Shown here: piece after piece, positions 6,858-33,295 of the stretch
Layout: each line of letters starts with the position of its first letter
Numbering within the stretch: the first letter of the stretch is position 1
Program-made: the position numbers and the translations under genes
The notes under the pieces: generated by a model
The model's database searches: none
Seen by the model: the letters and a program-made list of their open reading frames with translations, nothing else
What the model was told of the DNA's origin: nothing
NCBI GenBank assembly: GCA_036488495.1
Contig: DASXHM010000350.1
Span: 1-53,368 of the forward strand
Origin: Myxococcales bacterium
Lineage (GTDB): Bacteria; Myxococcota; Myxococcia; Myxococcales; 40CM-4-68-19
Direction: 5' to 3'
Length of the DNA stretch: 53,368 nucleotides

Positions 6858-6907
6858 CCGCGCTTTGTACCTTGTTTTCCGCCCGCCGATGTGGACAACA
6901 AACGAGG

Positions 6908-7984
6908 ATGCTCTACGTCCTCTCCGACCTGCACCTGGACGAGCGCGGCGAGCCGCGGATGTTCGCCGACGAGCGGCAGGGACGCGCGCTCAAGGCGCTC
7001 TGTGAGCGCATCGCCAACGACGAAGAGGGAGAGCTCGTCCTCTTGGGCGACACCTTCGACTTCACCTCGATGGTCCCGCCGGACTACGGCCTCGAGCGCT
7101 TCTTCCGCCGCCTCGACGTGCCGCTCGAGCCCAAGCCCAAGCGCACCCTCTTCGAGCTGCTCCACGCAGTTCAGGAGAGCAATCCCGTCACCTTCGATGC
7201 CCTGCAGACGCTGGGGAAGAAGCGCAAGATCACCATCGTCGCCGGCAACCACGACCACCAGATTCGCCAGGTCCGCGACGTAGGCTTCCAGGCCGAGATC
7301 GTCGAGTCCTGCGAGCGGACCATCGGCGAAAAGCGGCTGGTCCTGCAGCACGGCCACGAGCAGGACCCGGGCAACCGCGAACCGGGCGGCTCAGGCGAGC
7401 AGATGACCCGCTGCGTGCACCAGGGCGTGATTCCGTACCTCCTCCACCACGGCGCCCGCCGCAACGTCCGCATGGACGTGGGCCGCATCGTCGCGCTGCG
7501 GCCGGAGGAGGCGACCATCTCGGTCCTGCAGCGGTGGCTGGACGAGCCGACGTTCAAGAAGTTCTTCCGCGCCTTCGTCGATCTGCTGGCGGACAACGGC
7601 TATCTGCCGAAGCCCGTCACCTTCCTCGCCAAGATGATCAGCGTGAACCGGGTGCGCGCGGCGGTGGCCAAGGCGGATCTGACCTGGGAGCACACCGGCT
7701 CCTTTGCCATCGAGCTCTTGCAGGGAAAGCGCAAGCTGCCGCACGGCGCGCGCAATCCGGATGTGCTCGTCTTCGGCCACACCCACGTGCTCGACTGGGC
7801 GGCCGAGGACGACAAGCTCTACGTGAACCTCGGCACCTGGACCGAGCGCGCGCTCGACGGGAACTCGCCGCAGGACCGGACGCTGCCGCTCCTCACCTTT
7901 TCCGCGCCGGAAGGGCGACTGCAGGCGAAGCTGGACGATCTGGAGAGCGGCCTCGAGCTGCAGCGGTACAACCAGCCCGGTTAG
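6908..7984 (+). CDS. metallophosphoesterase (calcineurin-like), paralogue A
   Basis: Motifs 'SDLHLDE', 'LLGDTFD', 'AGNHDH', 'QHGH', 'FGHTHV'. The internal ATG at 6908 gives the family-typical N-terminus 'MLYVLSDLHL'. Confidence 0.8.
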   Translation: MLYVLSDLHLDERGEPRMFADERQGRALKALCERIANDEEGELVLLGDTFDFTSMVPPDYGLERFFRRLDVPLEPKPKRTLFELLHAVQESNPVTFDALQTLGKKRKITIVAGNHDHQIRQVRDVGFQAEIVESCERTIGEKRLVLQHGHEQDPGNREPGGSGEQMTRCVHQGVIPYLLHHGARRNVRMDVGRIVALRPEEATISVLQRWLDEPTFKKFFRAFVDLLADNGYLPKPVTFLAKMISVNRVRAAVAKADLTWEHTGSFAIELLQGKRKLPHGARNPDVLVFGHTHVLDWAAEDDKLYVNLGTWTERALDGNSPQDRTLPLLTFSAPEGRLQAKLDDLESGLELQRYNQPG

Positions 7985-9650: not shown

Positions 9651-10763
9651 GTGCCGCTCTACGTGGTCAGCGATCTACACCTGGGCGACACCTCGCTCGC
9701 GACGATGTTCCGCGACTCGGACCAGGGTTTCCGCTTCGCCGACATCTGCTCCGGCATCGCGCGAAACACCGGCAGCGAGCTGGTCTTGCTCGGCGACATC
9801 TTCGACCTCACCGCTACCCAGCCGCCGCCGAAGGGGCTCGCGCAGTTCGGCCGCGCCCTCGACGTGCCGCTCGAGGACAAGCCCACCCGGTCGATCGCCC
9901 AGGTGATGAAGGACATCCGCGAGACCAACGCCGTCGCACTGGACGCGCTGGAGGCGCTCTCCAACGAGGCGGAAGTCACCCTCGTCCCCGGCAACCACGA
10001 CCGGCACCTCGCCGAAGAAGGCGGCCGCGAAGCGCTCGATGCGGCGGGCCTGGCGAAAGTGAAGATCGAGCCGATGGCGGTGCGGCGGGTGATGGACAAG
10101 ATCGTCGTCCTCCAACACGGCCACACCTGGGACCCGGCGAATGCCACCGCCAAAGGCGGCGGCGAGACCATGACGGCGGTCATCCACCACGCCATCGTGC
10201 CCTTCCTGCGGCACTTGAAGCCGCGCTCGAACGTGCGCATCGACCCCGACCGGATCGTCGCGCTGCGCCCGGAGGAGCGGGTGGTGCCGGTGTTGGAGCG
10301 GTGGCTCAAGCCGGGTGTCTACGAGCGCTTCATCGACGCGTTTTTGGAGTTGCTGGTCGCCAACGACTATCTCTCGCGGCCCTTGGCCTGGCTGACGACG
10401 CCGTCGATCATCCGCTCGCGGCTCAAAGCCGACGACGACCTCTGGGAGCGCGCAGGGCATGCCGCGCTGTCGGCGCTGGAAGGAGCGCGGCCCTTGCCGG
10501 GAAAGCCGCCGCCGCCGGACGTGCTCGTCTTGGGGCATACGCATGTCGTGGACTGGGCGGTCGCGGAGGGAGCGCGGCCCGGAATCGAGCGGCTGTATGT
10601 GAATTTGGGAACGTGGAGCGCCCGCGCATCCGACGCGGCGGGGCCGATGGATGCGACGATGCCGCTCCTGCGCATCGATGCGGACGACCGCGTCCTTCGC
10701 GCGCAGCTCTTCGACGTATCCAGCAAGTGGCGAAACCTGCAGCGGTTCGAGGTGAAGCGATGA
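9651..10763 (+). CDS. metallophosphoesterase (calcineurin-like), paralogue B
   Basis: Colinear with 6908..7984: 'VSDLHLGD', 'LLGDIFD', 'PGNHDR', 'LQHGH', 'LGHTHV', 'LYVNLGTW'. GTG start. Confidence 0.8.
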   Translation: MPLYVVSDLHLGDTSLATMFRDSDQGFRFADICSGIARNTGSELVLLGDIFDLTATQPPPKGLAQFGRALDVPLEDKPTRSIAQVMKDIRETNAVALDALEALSNEAEVTLVPGNHDRHLAEEGGREALDAAGLAKVKIEPMAVRRVMDKIVVLQHGHTWDPANATAKGGGETMTAVIHHAIVPFLRHLKPRSNVRIDPDRIVALRPEERVVPVLERWLKPGVYERFIDAFLELLVANDYLSRPLAWLTTPSIIRSRLKADDDLWERAGHAALSALEGARPLPGKPPPPDVLVLGHTHVVDWAVAEGARPGIERLYVNLGTWSARASDAAGPMDATMPLLRIDADDRVLRAQLFDVSSKWRNLQRFEVKR

Positions 10764-20166: not shown

Positions 20167-21447
20167 CTAAAGGCCAGCCCTGCCGATCAGCGTCCGCACC
20201 TCGATGGCGCCGGTGTAATCGAAGTGCGGGTTGAGCGCCAACGCCCGTTCGATCAGCCGCCGGCCCGATCGATCGCCGTTGGCGAGGCGGATGGCCCCGG
20301 CGTGGTACCAAAGCTGCGCGTCGCGCGTTCCGAGCTTCACCGCCCGGTTCGCCGCCGCAAGCGCCTCGGACAGCCGGCCCGCGCGGTAGAGCGCCCAGGC
20401 CGCTGTATCCTCGGTGTATTCATCGTCGCGGGTGCCGCGTTCGGCCAAGGCGAGCTCGAGCGCTCGTCTGGTATTCAAATTCTTGGTAGCGAGGAATAGG
20501 GCGAGCGTGCGCGGATCGGCGCCGCCTTTCTTCTCGATCTCCGCCCGGATTCTGGACGCGCCCTCGAGATCGCCCGCGATCTCGCGCGCATCGCCCAAGA
20601 GCCAGCCCGTTTGAATCAATGGGTTGGCCCGATAGGCGCGTGCGAGCAATGGCTCCGCGGACTTGCCGTCGCCGCGGCCAATCAATACCCGCCCTTTCCC
20701 GACCAGGGCCGGCGGGAAATCCGGCAGTTCGCGTAGCGCCTGCTCGAATCCCGCGAGCGCTCCTTCGGCGTCGCCTTCGTTCCAGAAGATCATCGCCGCC
20801 TGCACGAGCACCCAGGCACGCGGCTCGCGATCGAGCGACCCATTGCCCGCGTCGATGGCGAGCCGCAAGGTGTCTTCGGCGGCCTTCACGTCGCCTTGCA
20901 GCCATTGCAGATGGGCCGCGCGGCTGTACGAAGGAAGGTTAGGCTTCAGATCCATCATGCGCTGCGCGGCTTCGATCGCCTCGCCGGTCCGGCCCAATTC
21001 GAGGAGCGCATCCGAGAGCGTGCCCCACGCGCCGGGCCGCTCGGGGGCTGCGTCGACCACCGCGCGCATCGTTTTCGCTGCGTCTGCGAAGCGATGGTCG
21101 TTCATCAACACCAGGCCCCGCAATTCGAGCGCGCTGCGGTTCGATGGCTCGAGCGCGAGCGCGCGCGACGCACAGGCACCTGCGCTGGCATACAACGTGG
21201 GTTTTGCCACGTCGCGCGACTTGCGGATCCACGCCTCGCCCAACTCGATCCAGGCCTGCACGGCTTCGGGCCGCTGCGCCACCGCGGCCTGCAGCTTGCG
21301 GACGGCCTCGTCGGCCTTGGCGTGTCCACCCGGATCGAGGTTGGCGAGGATCAGGTCGCGCCCTTCCTCCGACAAGATCTCGGGTGCCCGCTTCCTCTCT
21401 TGCGAGCACGCGAGAACAAAGAGCAGGCCGATTGCGATGCGGCGCAT
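20167..21447 (-). CDS. tetratricopeptide-repeat lipoprotein
   Basis: 'MRRIAIGLLFVLAC' signal plus lipobox. Repeated A..W..LG/A..Y..A TPR helices along the whole length. The start abuts the DUF4331 stop with no gap. Confidence 0.8.
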   Translation of the reverse strand: MRRIAIGLLFVLACSQERKRAPEILSEEGRDLILANLDPGGHAKADEAVRKLQAAVAQRPEAVQAWIELGEAWIRKSRDVAKPTLYASAGACASRALALEPSNRSALELRGLVLMNDHRFADAAKTMRAVVDAAPERPGAWGTLSDALLELGRTGEAIEAAQRMMDLKPNLPSYSRAAHLQWLQGDVKAAEDTLRLAIDAGNGSLDREPRAWVLVQAAMIFWNEGDAEGALAGFEQALRELPDFPPALVGKGRVLIGRGDGKSAEPLLARAYRANPLIQTGWLLGDAREIAGDLEGASRIRAEIEKKGGADPRTLALFLATKNLNTRRALELALAERGTRDDEYTEDTAAWALYRAGRLSEALAAANRAVKLGTRDAQLWYHAGAIRLANGDRSGRRLIERALALNPHFDYTGAIEVRTLIGRAGL

Positions 21448-22917
21448 CTACGGGGTCGGCTTGCCGTGACCTTCGGAGAAACCTTCCCAAGGCAGGGCCA
21501 GCCACGGAAACTGGGTGAGGAACGGCTTGTCGTTGTAGTCGACGCCATCCTGGATCAGCGGCGTACCCCCGGGTCCTGCGGTGAGCGCCGCGGGCTTACC
21601 GAGGAGCAGGCTGAGCTCGACGTCGGTCACGTCCACCTGCTCCTTCGCCGCCGCGTTCGTTCCTGTGCCGCCCGGGATCGAGCGGCCATTCGGGAATTGC
21701 GTCGGCAGATTCAGATCGATGCGCAGAACGTCGCCGACGGCGGTGATGTTGTGCCCTGAGGCCTTCAGGTTGATCACGTCGAGGATGTCGGTCCGGTTGT
21801 GCCTGAAGGTGTCGTCGACGGTGATCCCGAGCGCGGAATAGATGCCGACCGCCTCCGCATCCGGGACGATGACCGGGTTCAGGAAATAGGCGCCGAAATT
21901 CGCCACGTCGTCCTTGGGCTGGGTGCGATTGTACTTGTCCTTGTCCTGGTAGCCGATGACGGCTTCGTTGATCAGCGGGAGGCCGAGTCGCGAAACCTGG
22001 ACGAAAGGTCCGTACCCGGAAACCTTTCCATTGCTCCTTTGGATGGTGACCTTCTGCCGGCTCGACGAGGCCCAGATGCCGAGCGTGTTCGCGTCGCTGG
22101 CGGTCGTCCCTGGTGCGGCGCCATCGGCGGTCAACTGCGTGGTGGGGATCTCGAGGGCGATGGAATGCACGTTGTACCCGGCGAGCCCGTCCTGCGCGGT
22201 CCCCTTCGGGCGAAGGTTCGCGAGGTCGAAAACACCGCCCAAGTCGACGTAGAAACCATCGTCGCGAGGACCGGCAAAGACGCGAGTTGCGTTGTCGGTC
22301 GCCGTCTTGATGAAGGTCGCGGCGTACGCGTCGTCGTAGGTGGCGGACGTCACCAGCGCCGGGGCGAGCGCGTGCAGCGTAGCCTGCGTGCGCGGACCGA
22401 TGCGCCACGGCGCCGCAATCGCACCCGAGACGATGACGCTGGCGCTGGTGCTGGTGGTCTTGGTGACGGTATAGGTTTGGATGATCGCCCCACCGCTGGT
22501 CGGGATGTTGCCGGTGAGCTGGGAGAAGAACTCCTTGCCGCCGCCGACGCAGGCGGCAGTTCCGGGCGTGGGGCATACGGCCGCCGGGTCCTTCGTTGGT
22601 GGAACCTGGCTCGTGAAACGGAACGTGTAGGTGACGACGTCGGCCAAGGACGAAGGGCCCCGCGTGACGTGGATCTGGTAGAGCACATCATCGGAGAACT
22701 TGAAGAAGTTGGGGCCCGATGCCGGCTCCTCGAAGGGGATCCAATTCGCGACGATGTTGAGCGTGTCGTTGGCGCCGTTCTTCGACGTCACGAATGCGTA
22801 CACATCCGTGTTGTCCGCGGCGGGATCGTTGGCGATGGCCGGTGCTTCGCGATGTGACGACGCGAGGGCAGGACCGGAGAGGAGCAACGCGACCGCGACG
22901 ACTCGATACGTTTTCAT
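21448..22917 (-). CDS. DUF4331 family secreted protein
   Basis: Signal peptide, then the family hallmark 'SSHREAPAIANDPAADNTDVYAF'. Confidence 0.85.
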   Translation of the reverse strand: MKTYRVVAVALLLSGPALASSHREAPAIANDPAADNTDVYAFVTSKNGANDTLNIVANWIPFEEPASGPNFFKFSDDVLYQIHVTRGPSSLADVVTYTFRFTSQVPPTKDPAAVCPTPGTAACVGGGKEFFSQLTGNIPTSGGAIIQTYTVTKTTSTSASVIVSGAIAAPWRIGPRTQATLHALAPALVTSATYDDAYAATFIKTATDNATRVFAGPRDDGFYVDLGGVFDLANLRPKGTAQDGLAGYNVHSIALEIPTTQLTADGAAPGTTASDANTLGIWASSSRQKVTIQRSNGKVSGYGPFVQVSRLGLPLINEAVIGYQDKDKYNRTQPKDDVANFGAYFLNPVIVPDAEAVGIYSALGITVDDTFRHNRTDILDVINLKASGHNITAVGDVLRIDLNLPTQFPNGRSIPGGTGTNAAAKEQVDVTDVELSLLLGKPAALTAGPGGTPLIQDGVDYNDKPFLTQFPWLALPWEGFSEGHGKPTP

Positions 22918-25658: not shown

Positions 25659-25689
25659 GGAAACGAAAGCCGGGCGGGTCCCCGGCCTT
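25659..25689 (-). terminator. candidate intrinsic terminator downstream of the rhodanese gene
   Basis: Minus-strand RNA reads AAGGCCGGG-GACCCG-CCCGGCUUU followed by CGUUUCC. The GC-rich stem starts 27 nt after the TAA at 25716-25718. Confidence 0.45.
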
Positions 25690-25715
25690 CGGCAATTACG
25701 CTGCGTTCGCAGAAC

Positions 25716-26105
25716 TTACGTGCCCTTCTCCATCGGCTTCCCGGCCTTCTCCCACCCGGCGCTGCCCGCGGGCATGACGAAGACCTTGGTGTAGCCGTAC
25801 TTGACCGCCGCACGGGCGGCCTCATGGCAGGCCATTCAATGCTCGTTGTGGCAATAGAAGACGAGCTCGCGGCCTTTGTCCTGGGGAAGGTCAGTGGCCT
25901 TCACGCCGTTGAACTGCACCCATTTGGCGGTAGGGACGTGGCCGTGCTGCCAGTCGTCCTTGCTGTTGTTGTCGAAGATGTCGGCGGCGTGGGTTTTGAC
26001 GAGCTGGTCGACTTGATCGACCGTCAGCTCCCCAAACCCCTCGTTCGCCCGCGCGGTGCCGCCCGCAAAGAGCAGGAGCCCGGCGAGAACCAAGGCTGTT
26101 TTCAT
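25716..26105 (-). CDS. secreted single-domain rhodanese with one in-frame TGA (25836-25838): selenocysteine candidate, or a disrupted gene
   Basis: The track ORF 25836..26105 ends '...ELVFYCHNEH*'. Reading through the TGA continues in frame as 'MACHEAARAAVKYGYTKVFVMPAGSAGWEKAGKPMEKGT*', the missing C-terminal half of a rhodanese fold. Total is 129 codons with the signal peptide 'MKTALVLAGLLLFAGGTARA'. Confidence 0.6.
25803..25821 (-). promoter_or_regulatory. candidate bacterial SECIS hairpin
   Basis: Minus-strand RNA GGCCGCC-CGUGC-GGCGGUC: a 7-bp stem and a 5-nt loop with G at loop position 2. The stem starts 14 nt after the UGA and the loop lies about 21 nt from it. Confidence 0.3.
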
Positions 26106-26120
26106 CCGAGGAAGACCTCC

Positions 26121-26169: not shown

Positions 26170-26676
26170 CTACGCCTGCTTGTCCATGCGGATGTGCGGG
26201 ATGCGTGCGTCGTCGAAGACGTCTCCCACCGCGGCGTACCCCGCCTTCTCGTAGAACGGCCGGGCCTGCACCTGCGCGCCGAGAGTAAAGCTGCGGGCGC
26301 CGCGTTTGCGCGCCTCGGCTTCCAAGAAGTGCAAGAGCGCGCGCCCGATGCCCTGGCCGCGCACGTCGTCCACCACCGCCATGCGCTGGATCTTGGCCCG
26401 TCCCGGCTCCTCGAAGATGAAGCGGCCGGTGCCGCAGGGGACTCCGTCCATCAAGGCCAGCGCGTGGACGGCGTCGGTGCGGTCGTGCTCATCCACTTCC
26501 TCGCTGGGACGGACGCCCTGCTCTTCGACGTACACCGTCCAGCGCAGGCGCAGGCAGGTCTCGATGGCCTCTTGCGTGCGCGCTGCCCGGACCTCGATGA
26601 CGGGTCCCTTCGCAGCCTCGGCGGCCCGCGCCGCAGTGCGCACAGGGCCGACGTCGCCAGAGCCGGGCGACGTCAT
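26170..26676 (-). CDS. GNAT family N-acetyltransferase
   Basis: Last 168 codons of track ORF 26170..28242. 'IQRMAVVDDVRGQGIGRALLHFLEAEARKRG' is the acetyl-CoA binding motif. The ATG overlaps the OPT stop (ATGA at 26673-26676). Confidence 0.85.
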   Translation of the reverse strand: MTSPGSGDVGPVRTAARAAEAAKGPVIEVRAARTQEAIETCLRLRWTVYVEEQGVRPSEEVDEHDRTDAVHALALMDGVPCGTGRFIFEEPGRAKIQRMAVVDDVRGQGIGRALLHFLEAEARKRGARSFTLGAQVQARPFYEKAGYAAVGDVFDDARIPHIRMDKQA

Positions 26677-28940
26677 GCCGGCGTCTTCTCGCCGAGCCAG
26701 CGATCGGTGGCGACCAGCCAGAGCACTCCTGCGAGCCCGAGGAAGAGCACGAGAGACACCAGATCGCTGTTCGCGAAGCCGGGGATGCGCGTGCTCATGT
26801 TCACCGAATCGAGCCAGGCCCGCGAGGTTTCGGAGAGCTGCAGGAACGCGAGGATGGTGCCTATGACGGAAGCGCCGGCGATCAGGCCGCTCGAGAAGAG
26901 CACGCCCGGGCCGCTCTCCGCTTCCGCGTCGGAAAGCCTGCGCTTGCCGGTCTTGTCCGAGATGTAGCGGACGATGCCGCCCACCATGATCGGGGTCGAA
27001 GTGGACAACGGCAGATAGACGCCGACCGCGAACGCCAGAGAGGAAATGCCGGACAGCTCGAGCACGATGCTGATGAAGACGCCGATGAGGACGAGTCCCC
27101 AGGGCAGCTTCTGCGTCATGATCCCTTCGATGATGAACGACATCAGGACCGGCTTCGGCGCCGAGAATTTCGCGCTGACCTTCTCGCCGTTGTCGCGGTG
27201 GTCGAGCTTGCCGTTGATGCCGGGATCTTCGAGGTACTTCACGTGGCCGGTGGTGTCGATCAGGTACTTGCCGGTCGGGACGTCGCCGCGCGGTTCTTTC
27301 AGCCAGACCACGTCGTATTCGCCGGAGTCGCGCGAGGCGTCCGGGCCGCGGAGGTGCTCGCGCGGGCCGGTGAAGTCCGCCTTCGAGAAGGTGACGTCCG
27401 GGTAATTGCGCTTCGCGAAGATGGTGCCGGCGTCGTTCAGCTTGAGGATGACGAAGCCGAGAACGAGCGCGCTCGCAAACGAGCCGACCAGGATTGCAAT
27501 CTGCTGCCGCGAGGGCGTCGCGCCAATCAGATAGCCGGTCTTCAAATCTTGGGAAGTGGTGCCGCCGTTGGAGATGGCGATGCAGACCACGGCAGCGATG
27601 CTCAGCGCGGCCACCTTGTACGGCGCCGACACCCAACCGAGCGCGAGGAACGTCAGAGACGTGATGAGGAGGGTCGCGACCGTCATGCCGGAGATCGGGT
27701 TCGAAGAGCTGCCCACTTCGCCGGTGAGCCGCGAGCTCACGGTGGTGAAGAGGAAGCCGAGGATGAGCACGAGCAGCGCGCCCAGCACGTTGATCTTGAA
27801 CGACGGCACGAGCGCGCAGACGACGACGATCAGGAGCGACCCAGCACCGACGACCCACAACGGAATGTCCTTGTCGGTGCGCAAGGGACCGGATGCGCCT
27901 GTCGAACCCGAGAGCGACTTCATGCCGCGCATCGCGCCGCCGATGATGGTGGGGAGTGACTTTGCGAGCGAGATGATGCCGCCCGCGGCCACCGCGCCCG
28001 CTCCGATATACAGAATGTATTGATGCCAGACGGCGTCGGTGTCCATGTCGCGGATCAGCGTCGTCGCCGGATAGATGGGCGTATTGGAAGTGCTGCCGAA
28101 CAGCTTGATGGCCGGCATCAAGACGAGGCTCGAGAGGATGCCGCCCGCGCCCATGATCATCGCGATGCGGGTGCCGATGATGTAGCCGACGCCCAACAGC
28201 TCGGGCCCGACTTCGAGCGAGAGGTTTCCCCCGTCGTACCACTTGCCGAAGATCCTCTCCGGCACGTCCTTGAAGAGCGCGAAGCCCTTGTAGCCGAGCG
28301 CGAACAACCCGCCGACGCCCAGGCCCGCGAAGACCGTCTTGGCGGTGGCCCCGCCCGCCTCACCCGAGATGAGCACCTCGGCGCAGGCGGTCCCTTCCGG
28401 ATAGACGAGCGTCTTCGCTTCCTTGACGATGAGCGCCCGCCTGAGCGGAATCATCATCAGGATTCCGAGCAGGCCGCCCAAGATGCTGACCAGGATGACC
28501 TGGGAGATCTCCAGGTTGTAGCCGAGGATCAGCAAGGCCGGCATGGTGACGCCGACGCCGAAGGCGATGCTCTCGCCCGCGCTGCCGGTCGTCTGGGTGA
28601 TGTTGTTCTCGAGGATGGTCGCCTTGCGGATGCCGAACACGCGCGAGAACCCGCGGAAGATGGTGATGGAGAGGACCGCGACCGGAATCGACGCGCTCAC
28701 CGTCAGGCCGACCTTCAGCACGAGGTACATGCTGGAGGCGCCGAAGAGGATGCCGAGGAGCGCGCCGACGATCAGCGGCACCGGCGTCAATTCGGGGATG
28801 TCCTGGTCCGCCGGGATGTACGGCTGGTGGACCGACTCCTCGGCCGCGACGGGAACACGGTCGACAGTGGCCTTGCCGGGCGCCTTGGATTCAGGGGCGG
28901 GTGAGACCGCGGGCATCGACATGGTCGCCGTAGGTAACAT
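26673..28940 (-). CDS. OPT family oligopeptide transporter
   Basis: About 16 TM segments. 'ELTPVPLIVGALLGILFGASSMYLVLKVGLTVSASIPVAVLS' and 'NITQTTGSAGESIA' are typical OPT blocks. Start set at ATG 28940 because 29015 would leave only 8 nt to the divergent gene. Confidence 0.86.
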   Translation of the reverse strand: MLPTATMSMPAVSPAPESKAPGKATVDRVPVAAEESVHQPYIPADQDIPELTPVPLIVGALLGILFGASSMYLVLKVGLTVSASIPVAVLSITIFRGFSRVFGIRKATILENNITQTTGSAGESIAFGVGVTMPALLILGYNLEISQVILVSILGGLLGILMMIPLRRALIVKEAKTLVYPEGTACAEVLISGEAGGATAKTVFAGLGVGGLFALGYKGFALFKDVPERIFGKWYDGGNLSLEVGPELLGVGYIIGTRIAMIMGAGGILSSLVLMPAIKLFGSTSNTPIYPATTLIRDMDTDAVWHQYILYIGAGAVAAGGIISLAKSLPTIIGGAMRGMKSLSGSTGASGPLRTDKDIPLWVVGAGSLLIVVVCALVPSFKINVLGALLVLILGFLFTTVSSRLTGEVGSSSNPISGMTVATLLITSLTFLALGWVSAPYKVAALSIAAVVCIAISNGGTTSQDLKTGYLIGATPSRQQIAILVGSFASALVLGFVILKLNDAGTIFAKRNYPDVTFSKADFTGPREHLRGPDASRDSGEYDVVWLKEPRGDVPTGKYLIDTTGHVKYLEDPGINGKLDHRDNGEKVSAKFSAPKPVLMSFIIEGIMTQKLPWGLVLIGVFISIVLELSGISSLAFAVGVYLPLSTSTPIMVGGIVRYISDKTGKRRLSDAEAESGPGVLFSSGLIAGASVIGTILAFLQLSETSRAWLDSVNMSTRIPGFANSDLVSLVLFLGLAGVLWLVATDRWLGEKTPA

Positions 28941-29010
28941 GGAGTCGCGCCGCGGGTCGAACGGGAGGCGAGCGTCCGATCGAATGCGCGCAATCGGAGC
29001 CCGGGCGGCG

Positions 29011-29016
29011 TACAAT
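29011..29016 (+). promoter_or_regulatory. candidate -10 box (TACAAT) for 29024..30415; would give a near-leaderless mRNA
   Basis: Near-consensus TACAAT in a GC-rich spacer, 7 nt before the GTG start. No convincing -35. Confidence 0.3.
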
Positions 29017-32035: not shown

Positions 32036-33295
32036 TCAGAGCGCGCTGAGGCGCTTTGGCAGGTCGACCGGCAAGTCGTCGCTGACGACTTCCAGCGCCT
32101 CGGCCGTCGCCATCTCGTGCGTGCCGTTGAGCCGCGAAAGCACGTCCGCCGGGCACCCGCGCTCCGACGCAAGCTGGTTCAAGACATCGAGGTTGTCGCT
32201 CACCGACGCCCCGCGAAGGCTCTTCGTGACCGCGACCGCCTCGACCAGCGCAGTGCAGGGCGCAACCGCGCAGCTCATCGCCTTCCGCAGCGTCGCCGCA
32301 TCCACCCCCGGATAGCCGAAGTCGAGCGCCGCGAAGCCGAGCTCGCGCTGGCGCTGCAGATCGTCGAGATCGGGCGCGATCCAGCGCGAGACGTCCTGAC
32401 CGGCAGCGGCCGCGGCCTGACGGGCAGGAACGTCGAAGCGGTAGATGTGGATGGCCACCATCTCGCCGATCAGGATGCCCTGCGAGCGGATCAGATCGGC
32501 CAGGTGGCGCACTTCCAACGACGCCGCAGCCGCGTCGCCCTGTCGAAGCGCGAGCGCATAGCGAAGCTTCGCCCAACCGACGAGGCTCGAATAATTCGGG
32601 ATGGGCCCGTGCAAGACGTCGTTGTCGGCGTAGTCGCGCAGCCGGCCGGCGCCCAAGAGCGACCAGTGGTCGAACTTCCCGAGCGCCGCCATCCAGGAGA
32701 AATCGCGGCCCGCCAGATCCGCGTCGGTGACCTTGGAGATCCAGTCGGCCGCGCGGAGGCGCGTGCGCAGCTCTTCCGGCAGGTAGAGCGAGCCGTGGGG
32801 AAGATCGAGCGGCTTTTCGTAATCGACGCGACCGGCCATGAAGGGAGCCGCGTCCGCTGAGGCGCCGGCAGGCGGCATCGTGGGCTTCGCGCGCAGCTTC
32901 TCGGCCTCGGAGCAGAACTTGTCGACGTACTTCTCGGCGTTGGCGGCATTCTTCGCCAGGGCTTCGCCGAGCGTCAGCTTCTGCCCCATCGCGACCAATC
33001 CCGAAGCCAGCGCCGCATCTCCCCCATCGCGCGGACCGGCTGTAGCAGCGGCGGTTTCCTGCCTCGCCACGCGGAGCGCCGGCGCCCGAGGTGCGGAAGC
33101 GAAAGGCGGCGCTGCGGGGACGACGGACGCAGCCGAAACCCGCAGCGGGCCCTCGACCCCGGCCGGCGCGGACGCAGCCACGCGCGGCCTCAGCCACAGC
33201 AGGAAGGCCGCGGCGAGAAGCAAAACAGAGGCGAAGAGAAGCTTGCGCGACTTCACGGTGCGGAACGCTACCGCGAGAGCACGGTAGTCAATCAA
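32036..33295 (-). CDS. membrane-anchored hypothetical protein
   Basis: 419 aa with a single N-terminal TM 'LLFASVLLLAAAFLLWL' and high GC3. It starts 12 nt after the ferredoxin stop. No family recognised. Confidence 0.65.
   Translation of the reverse strand: MIDYRALAVAFRTVKSRKLLFASVLLLAAAFLLWLRPRVAASAPAGVEGPLRVSAASVVPAAPPFASAPRAPALRVARQETAAATAGPRDGGDAALASGLVAMGQKLTLGEALAKNAANAEKYVDKFCSEAEKLRAKPTMPPAGASADAAPFMAGRVDYEKPLDLPHGSLYLPEELRTRLRAADWISKVTDADLAGRDFSWMAALGKFDHWSLLGAGRLRDYADNDVLHGPIPNYSSLVGWAKLRYALALRQGDAAAASLEVRHLADLIRSQGILIGEMVAIHIYRFDVPARQAAAAAGQDVSRWIAPDLDDLQRQRELGFAALDFGYPGVDAATLRKAMSCAVAPCTALVEAVAVTKSLRGASVSDNLDVLNQLASERGCPADVLSRLNGTHEMATAEALEVVSDDLPVDLPKRLSAL

Follow-up and report, generated by a model that had tools for sequence, protein, structure and literature searches.

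Rhodanese-like selenoproteins and bacterial selenocysteine insertion sequence (SECIS) elements are already well known, and the principle at work in the gene described here is not a new one. A 2026 review sets out five forms of rhodanese-like selenoprotein, namely UxxS, two UxxG forms, CxU (NF041203) and TsoB with its UxxxxU motif (NF045694), in which U denotes selenocysteine (Sec). The bacterial SECIS (bSECIS) element has been described by a published model with four constraints (loop of 3-9 nt, stem of 4-16 bp, G in the first two loop positions, spacing of 16-37 nt, minimum free energy (MFE) of -7.5 kcal/mol or below; PMC13188914). The gene that we compare with these systems lies on the minus strand of a 53,368-nt stretch of DNA from a Myxococcales bacterium (GenBank assembly GCA_036488495.1, contig DASXHM010000350.1), which at its full length we refer to as the window, and it encodes a small rhodanese whose reading frame is interrupted at codon 90 by a TGA. 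We consider it very likely that this is one intact gene for a putatively exported, single-domain rhodanese in which the UGA at codon 90 is decoded as Sec, presumably in a SelB-dependent manner. Cultured Myxococcota of the genera Anaeromyxobacter, Myxococcus, Corallococcus, Haliangium, Plesiocystis and Stigmatella are recorded as Sec users (PMC5029168 supplement; PMC1794560), with 10-12 selenoproteins in Anaeromyxobacter, 6 in Plesiocystis and 2-3 each in Haliangium, Corallococcus and Myxococcus (PMC5029168 supplement), which makes a selenoprotein in the organism that carries the window plausible.

The in-frame TGA occupies a cysteine column

The open reading frame of 89 amino acids (26105-25839) ends with ...LVFYCHNEH at the TGA (25838-25836) and, when TGA is translated as U, the same frame continues for 39 more codons, MACHEAARAAVKYGYTKVFVMPAGSAGWEKAGKPMEKGT, to a TAA at 25718-25716. 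The resulting 129-residue read-through product contains a full Pfam Rhodanese domain (PF00581; residues 28-120, 51.4 bits against a cut-off of 22.2, 1.6e-13), confirming the proposal of an earlier note on this DNA that a single in-frame TGA splits an otherwise complete rhodanese. Its N-terminus resembles an export signal (Table 1), and comparably hydrophobic N-termini are present in all relatives of the window protein.

A homologue search over 5.8 billion proteins recovered dozens of database proteins of 88-96 aa, all of which end at the same point (...YC[HA][ND].H), together with homologues of 134-158 aa that read across the TGA column as LVFYCGNEHCGACH or ...CMACH. Cys-form homologues carry YCGNEHCGACH through this column; the TGA had been placed by the earlier note at the position of a second Cys, and Cys is what the full-length homologues show there. 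For analysis at the DNA level, 56 loci were taken from species-representative genomes (nearly all of them Myxococcota metagenome-assembled genomes (MAGs) and Polyangium isolates, plus one Acidobacteriota MAG) and 80 further loci from metagenomes; 126 loci carry the motif. Codon 90 is TGA in 113 of these loci and TGC in 13 (94 and 12 distinct sequences, respectively), and no other codon occurs, a Trp codon (TGG) included. Isolates with a TGA form include Polyangium sp. 15x6, 6x1 and y55x31 (loci L030, L033 and L039). Homologues therefore have either Cys or the candidate Sec codon at this column.

The loop motif shared by the window protein and its relatives is C85-x4-[U/C]90-x2-C93-H94, and C85, C/U90, C93 and H94 are invariant in a 57-sequence alignment. 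About 96% of the TGA forms, like the window gene itself, have U-x-A-C-H (UxxC). In four relatives (L045, L047, L050 and L104) the TGA is followed by x-A-S, giving U-x-A-S-[H/F] with Ser replacing Cys93. The Cys forms are interspersed among the Sec forms in a maximum-likelihood tree, where 5-7 changes are needed to account for their distribution, and this scatter suggests repeated exchange between Sec and Cys.

A conserved hairpin accompanies the TGA

The earlier note had also described a SECIS-like hairpin within the spacing used by bacterial elements, and its position and geometry were borne out: the stem begins 14 nt after the UGA, the loop lies 21 nt after it and G occupies loop position 2. 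With its 7 bp, loop CGUGC, 21-nt spacing and -11.8 kcal/mol, the window element passes the published bSECIS constraints. Beyond the window, the hairpin is conserved, covaries and is largely lost in the Cys forms. In each of the 94 distinct TGA forms the stem is perfectly paired over 5-8 bp (over 7 bp in 80 forms) and, counted from the U of UGA, begins at +17 to +19; the apical loops include CGUGC, CGUGA, CGGGC, CGGGA, GGUC, GGUCG and similar sequences. The GGUC loops of some members match the apical loop of E. coli fdhF. All four bSECIS constraints hold in 94 of 94 TGA forms but in just 2 of 12 Cys forms. When codons were resampled synonymously, a hairpin of at least 7 bp was expected at this site in 13.1 of the 94 TGA forms and is present in 85, whereas among the 12 Cys forms it is present in one, against an expectation of 0.7. 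The MFE of a 36-nt segment shows a modest effect only under the same resampling (z = -0.8), the position-specific hairpin test being far more discriminating. One of the four relatives with Ser at position 93, L050, retains a 7-bp hairpin with the loop CGUGA.

Pairing is maintained across clades that have differing stems (GGCCGCC/GGCGGUC, GGGCGCC/GGCGCUC, AGGGCGC/GCGCCCU, CCGCUGC/GCAGCGG and GCGGCCC/GGGCCGC). In a covariation test on a 15-sequence alignment, 97% of cells were paired, three pairs showed compensatory changes and none of 500 shuffles matched the score, while controls in which the register had been slid paired at just 34-63%. One compensatory pair, at alignment columns 20/34 (window 25803-25823, codons 96 and 101), is non-synonymous on both sides, being CG in nine sequences and GC in six, such that Ala96/Val101 (GCC...GUC) alternates with Gly96/Leu101 (GGC...CUC). 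This implies that the RNA structure shapes the protein sequence of the active-site helix.

Conservation of the downstream frame and proposed local recoding

The frame that follows the TGA is open for 33-40 codons in every TGA form and ends where the Cys forms end. Pairwise differences at the first, second and third codon positions are 0.219, 0.179 and 0.369 on the 3' side of the TGA, compared with 0.279, 0.247 and 0.380 in the 50 codons on its 5' side, so that the downstream part is at least as constrained; single-base codon differences comprise 29515 synonymous and 19063 non-synonymous cases. Purifying selection acts on this conserved downstream frame. Among the true stop codons of the window TGA is the most frequent, ending 22 of the 44 predicted genes, and of the 64 rhodanese genes of the family with a readable stop, 43 terminate in TGA. 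Since TGA serves as an ordinary stop both in the window and in the family, the recoding is local and the genetic code has not been reassigned.

Sequencing error at the TGA, which the earlier note had raised as a possible objection, is countered by independent metagenome and metatranscriptome contigs that keep the codon. Three other soil-metagenome studies yielded contigs of 90-95% identity in which 25836-25838 is unchanged despite many differences nearby. Two metatranscriptome contigs from soil and rhizosphere (X25 and X28; 91-97% identical, corresponding to window 25765-25886) span the UGA and the hairpin unchanged, and weakly suggest, at low depth and with DNA carry-over possible, that close relatives of the window gene are transcribed in situ. 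The codon after the TGA is ATG in the window (25833-25835, minus strand) and in the closest clade, and CAC, ACG, CCC, AGC or CTG in others. The UGA-AUG arrangement could permit reinitiation when selenium is short, although the ATG is not conserved in the other clades.

A scan of the window and of 136 loci for other TGA-interrupted genes, which would be independent signs of Sec use, returned only ordinary gene junctions. In-frame TGAs at window positions 32038 and 11478 (both minus strand) have coding-like composition on both sides and resemble ordinary same-frame junctions (...KRLSAL* then RSVLVVVFF...).

A rhodanese fold with an unusual active-site loop

An AlphaFold2 model built from the 57-sequence alignment has a rhodanese fold with a mean pLDDT of 88.5 (residues 1-18 fall below 50), which the residues encoded 3' of the UGA complete, and it matches solved rhodaneses with a Foldseek E of 1e-7 and a TM of about 0.7. 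The active-site loop reads C85-H-N-E-H-U90-M-A-C93-H94. When the loop is aligned with those of E. coli YgaP and a Francisella rhodanese, C85 matches the YgaP catalytic Cys (FHCQAGKR), and U90, the fifth residue past C85, takes the place of the loop Arg of standard C-x-x-G-x-R-[ST] loops; C93 lies one helical turn beyond the U90 position. No solved structure has a C-x4-[C/U]-x2-C loop. A phosphatase or arsenate reductase of the Cdc25/Acr2 type was considered and rejected, as these require C-X5-R and the residue six after C85 is Met91 in a loop that has no Arg.

In the wider family, an exhaustive profile search returned 1808 cluster representatives at E <= 1e-10, the nearest of which are exported FYC-x4-C-x-A-S-H rhodaneses, some of them present as long tandem arrays. 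A search seeded with one CxASH member (P0147) found 41 proteins and no truncated form among them, and we conclude from this that Sec use is mainly a feature of the branch that has Cys at +8. The best profile matches also include giant proteins (P0129, 2327 aa; P0156, 1654 aa; P0142, 1197 aa) with 8-15 tandem rhodanese-like domains that have the loop IVVVCYTGHTASQT.

Table 1. Features of the rhodanese locus in the window, and of relatives with Ser in place of Cys93
Feature	Position	Strand	Remarks
Complete rhodanese selenoprotein gene	25716..26105	-	129 codons + TAA 25716-25718; ATG 26103-26105
In-frame TGA, codon 90, predicted selenocysteine U90	25836..25838	-	aligned to Cys of full-length homologues
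Cys85 codon, canonical rhodanese catalytic Cys	25851..25853	-	alignment
Cys93 and His94 codons, completing U-x-x-C-H	25824..25829	-	alignment; N-terminus of helix 92-102 in model
Putative Sec-type (export) signal peptide MKTALVLAGLLLFAGGTARA	26046..26105	-	A-x-A site; probable cleavage after ARA; inferred from sequence
Ribosome-binding site GGAGG	26116..26120	-	10 nt 5' of ATG; sequence reading
bSECIS-type hairpin GGCCGCC-CGUGC-GGCGGUC	25803..25821	-	7 bp, 5-nt loop
Terminator-like hairpin, 11-bp stem, then U-rich sequence	about 25664..25691	-	25 nt past TAA; -29.7 kcal/mol, z = -1.9
UxxS-type relative L045	2914-3400 of L045		
UxxS-type relative L047	1562-2010 of L047		
UxxS-type relative L050	around 3219 of L050		
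UxxS-type relative L104	1400-1900 of L104		

Alternatives to selenocysteine decoding

The most durable alternative, which we nevertheless regard as improbable, concerns function only and holds that [U/C]-x-x-C-H serves not in a redox relay but as a c-type haem attachment site or a soft-metal site (Cu, Hg or As) on a rhodanese scaffold. CXXCH is the motif of haem c attachment, and the invariance of C90, C93 and H94 in the 57 aligned sequences, together with the predicted signal peptide, would fit such a role. The motif is invariant as [U/C]xxCH within the subfamily, but close relatives have CxxSH, UxxSH or UxxSF, and the wider family is mostly C-x-A-S-H, with 73 domain instances of CxxSH against 14 of CxxCH. 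Moreover, the four Sec forms with U-x-A-S-[H/F] indicate that the second Cys is dispensable and that His persists in its absence, CXXCW is the motif of the related NCBIfam family, and neither a conserved distal ligand nor a cytochrome-maturation neighbour was seen.

Read-through of the UGA could also be achieved without a Sec system, by a near-cognate Cys-tRNA or Trp-tRNA, with the hairpin merely stimulating the process, and it is the case that hairpins 3' of stop codons can stimulate read-through. We attach little probability to this, as the restriction of the column to Cys or TGA is the classical Cys/Sec signature, the hairpin geometry and G[G/U] loops fit the SelB-type bSECIS model, the Sec trait is present in cultured Myxococcota and none of the 126 loci has the TGG that encodes Trp. 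A smaller probability still attaches to termination at the UGA followed by a restart at the adjacent AUG, whereby polypeptides of 89 and 39 residues would assemble as a split rhodanese. This is prompted by the ATG that follows the TGA in the window and its closest clade, but the codons at this position in the other clades are not start codons and their downstream frame is equally conserved, the Cys forms are single polypeptides and the break would sit within the active-site loop. Finally, although a lone in-frame stop in one metagenome-assembled sequence normally hints at error, a pseudogene or a sequencing or assembly error for TGC or TGG is effectively refuted by the occurrence of TGA in 113 of the 126 loci, which are independent and represent various species and samples, by its retention in the contigs of the three other studies, by purifying selection on the open downstream frame and by the conserved, covarying hairpin that goes with the TGA.

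Sec decoding of codon 90, and the chemistry that we propose for it below, must also be set against several observations that weigh the other way. When folded by itself, the window hairpin does not stand out from shuffled GC-rich sequence (z about -0.9), and a shorter 44-nt fold favours a pairing other than the window hairpin; because the single-sequence fold is indistinguishable from shuffles, the significance of the hairpin comes only from the relatives. Scans of the window for tRNA genes and Rfam families gave no tRNA gene and no Rfam match. The four relatives with U-x-A-S imply that C93 is not essential to the chemistry in all members, and no conserved neighbour gene in the window and related loci points to a substrate or a reductant.

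Comparison with known rhodanese-like selenoproteins

The window protein works like the catalogued rhodanese selenoproteins in that it combines a rhodanese fold with Sec in or beside the active-site loop. However, the exported single-domain form C-x4-U-x2-C-H is absent from the five forms of the 2026 review, and the window protein falls under the cut-off of every NCBIfam model, those for selenoproteins included (TsoB, 46.8 bits against 805; PQQ_CXXCW, 39.8 against 128; LYCAU, 36.9 against 115). The best NCBIfam match is to TsoB (NF045694; reference protein WP_332113227.1), with read-through residues 60-127 aligned to positions 92-158 of the profile. Both proteins have a rhodanese domain with reactive positions five residues apart (UxxxxU in TsoB, C85/U90 in the window protein), and TsoB is a selenoprotein that works outside the cytoplasm, as is predicted for the window protein. 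In contrast, TsoB has about 572 aa, a DsbD-like membrane domain and two Sec residues, while the window protein has 129 aa, no DsbD-like domain and one Sec (C-x4-U), as well as the extra C93-H94, and its gene lies outside a Tso operon. Membership of TsoB was rejected on the score, the lack of the second domain and the single TGA.

Form 1 of the review (UxxS; WP_010941598.1 from Geobacter sulfurreducens; PMC13188914, PMC9312934) is likewise a single-domain rhodanese selenoprotein, and its UxxS motif equals the U-x-A-S that L045, L047, L050 and L104 have in the Sec column of the window gene. The motif is UxxS in form 1 as opposed to UxxC in the window gene, a comparison made on the motif description of form 1, and on this description the Sec position is probably common to both. 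NF041203 (LYCAU; form 3, CxU) is also a small rhodanese with Sec near the catalytic Cys, and gives a weak match over residues 19-127; Sec follows Cys by two residues there and by five in the window protein, which on this spacing and on its score was rejected as a member. Assignment to TIGR03865 (PQQ_CXXCW) was likewise discarded on its score and because the window motif is U-M-A-C-H, not CXXCW. The uncharacterised secreted FYC-x4-C-x-A-S-H rhodaneses and TIGR03865 share with the window protein the fold, the signal peptide, the FYC-x4-C loop and the helix that follows it, but they are all-Cys, have Ser at +8 or Trp at +9 and lack a SECIS. Closest by sequence among solved structures are the rhodanese domains of E. 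coli YgaP and GlpE (PDB 2moi, 5hbl and 1gmx), which have the fold and the position of the catalytic Cys in common with the window protein but carry the standard C-x-x-G-x-R-[ST] loop.

A possible selenol relay and its significance

We propose that the hairpin at 25803-25821, which lies inside the coding sequence of helix E95-V101, acts as a bacterial SECIS that would recruit SelB with Sec-tRNA(Sec) to a ribosome paused at the UGA. Recoding would then yield the 39 C-terminal residues that the complete rhodanese fold requires. In the periplasm, the protein could operate as a thiol/selenol relay in which sulfur or selenium is taken up on C85 as the persulfide-carrying Cys, the U90 selenolate attacks the C85-bound sulfur or selenium to form an S-Se bond, and C93, in most members, resolves this bond as a U-x-x-C selenenylsulfide at the helix N-terminus, to be re-reduced by an external reductant. 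A Cys-Sec(-Cys) relay of this kind is probable, in our view, because of the geometry of the rhodanese loop, because UxxC motifs are frequent in selenoproteins and because TsoB is fused to a DsbD-like electron-transfer module.

There are about eight Sec forms for every Cys form, and most of the Sec forms come from soil metagenomes and soil-type Myxococcota, which points to a real dependence on selenium in a group not usually counted as rich in selenoproteins. Records at NCBI and JGI label members as 'rhodanese-like domain-containing' or 'hypothetical' proteins of 88-99 aa, and as a consequence more than 100 genes from genomes and metagenomes of soil Myxococcota are annotated as fragments with an incomplete active site. 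The family also constitutes a natural experiment, in which Sec stands at a second reactive position beside the catalytic Cys and the Sec, Cys, UxxC and UxxS variants make the role of this residue testable. Rather more tentatively, and as a possibility that we consider less likely than not, these proteins may form a distinct, uncatalogued and predominantly Sec-dependent exported family of soil Myxococcota (about 90% TGA) in which a three-residue Cys-Sec-Cys relay, built on a rhodanese scaffold, serves a reaction foreign to ordinary rhodaneses, such as a periplasmic reduction that sets free sulfide or selenide from persulfides, polysulfides or selenite, with the SECIS also dictating the sequence of the active-site helix.

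Genomic neighbourhood

The earlier note had seen the gene as an independent unit flanked by terminators on both sides, a claim that stands for the downstream side, where the hairpin is plausible as a terminator (Table 1), but not for the upstream side, where the hairpin cannot be told from shuffles (z = -0.3); a strict terminator scan reported neither. The upstream hairpin lies between a small GNAT acetyltransferase gene and the rhodanese ribosome-binding site. Genes for an OPT-family oligopeptide transporter and this acetyltransferase are located directly upstream of the rhodanese (window 26170-29015, minus strand; loci L001-L021 and L026), and the OPT-GNAT-rhodanese order is found in about 20 related genomes, in the nearest clade only and not in Polyangium or other clades. 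A hybrid histidine kinase is encoded downstream of the rhodanese. Further away, the gene for a TPR protein (20167-21447, minus strand) adjoins one for a DUF4331 protein (21448-22917, minus strand; 310 bits) that has a signal peptide, and two metallophosphoesterase-like genes (6872-7984 and 9651-10763) are similar to the gene located 3' of the rhodanese in related genomes.

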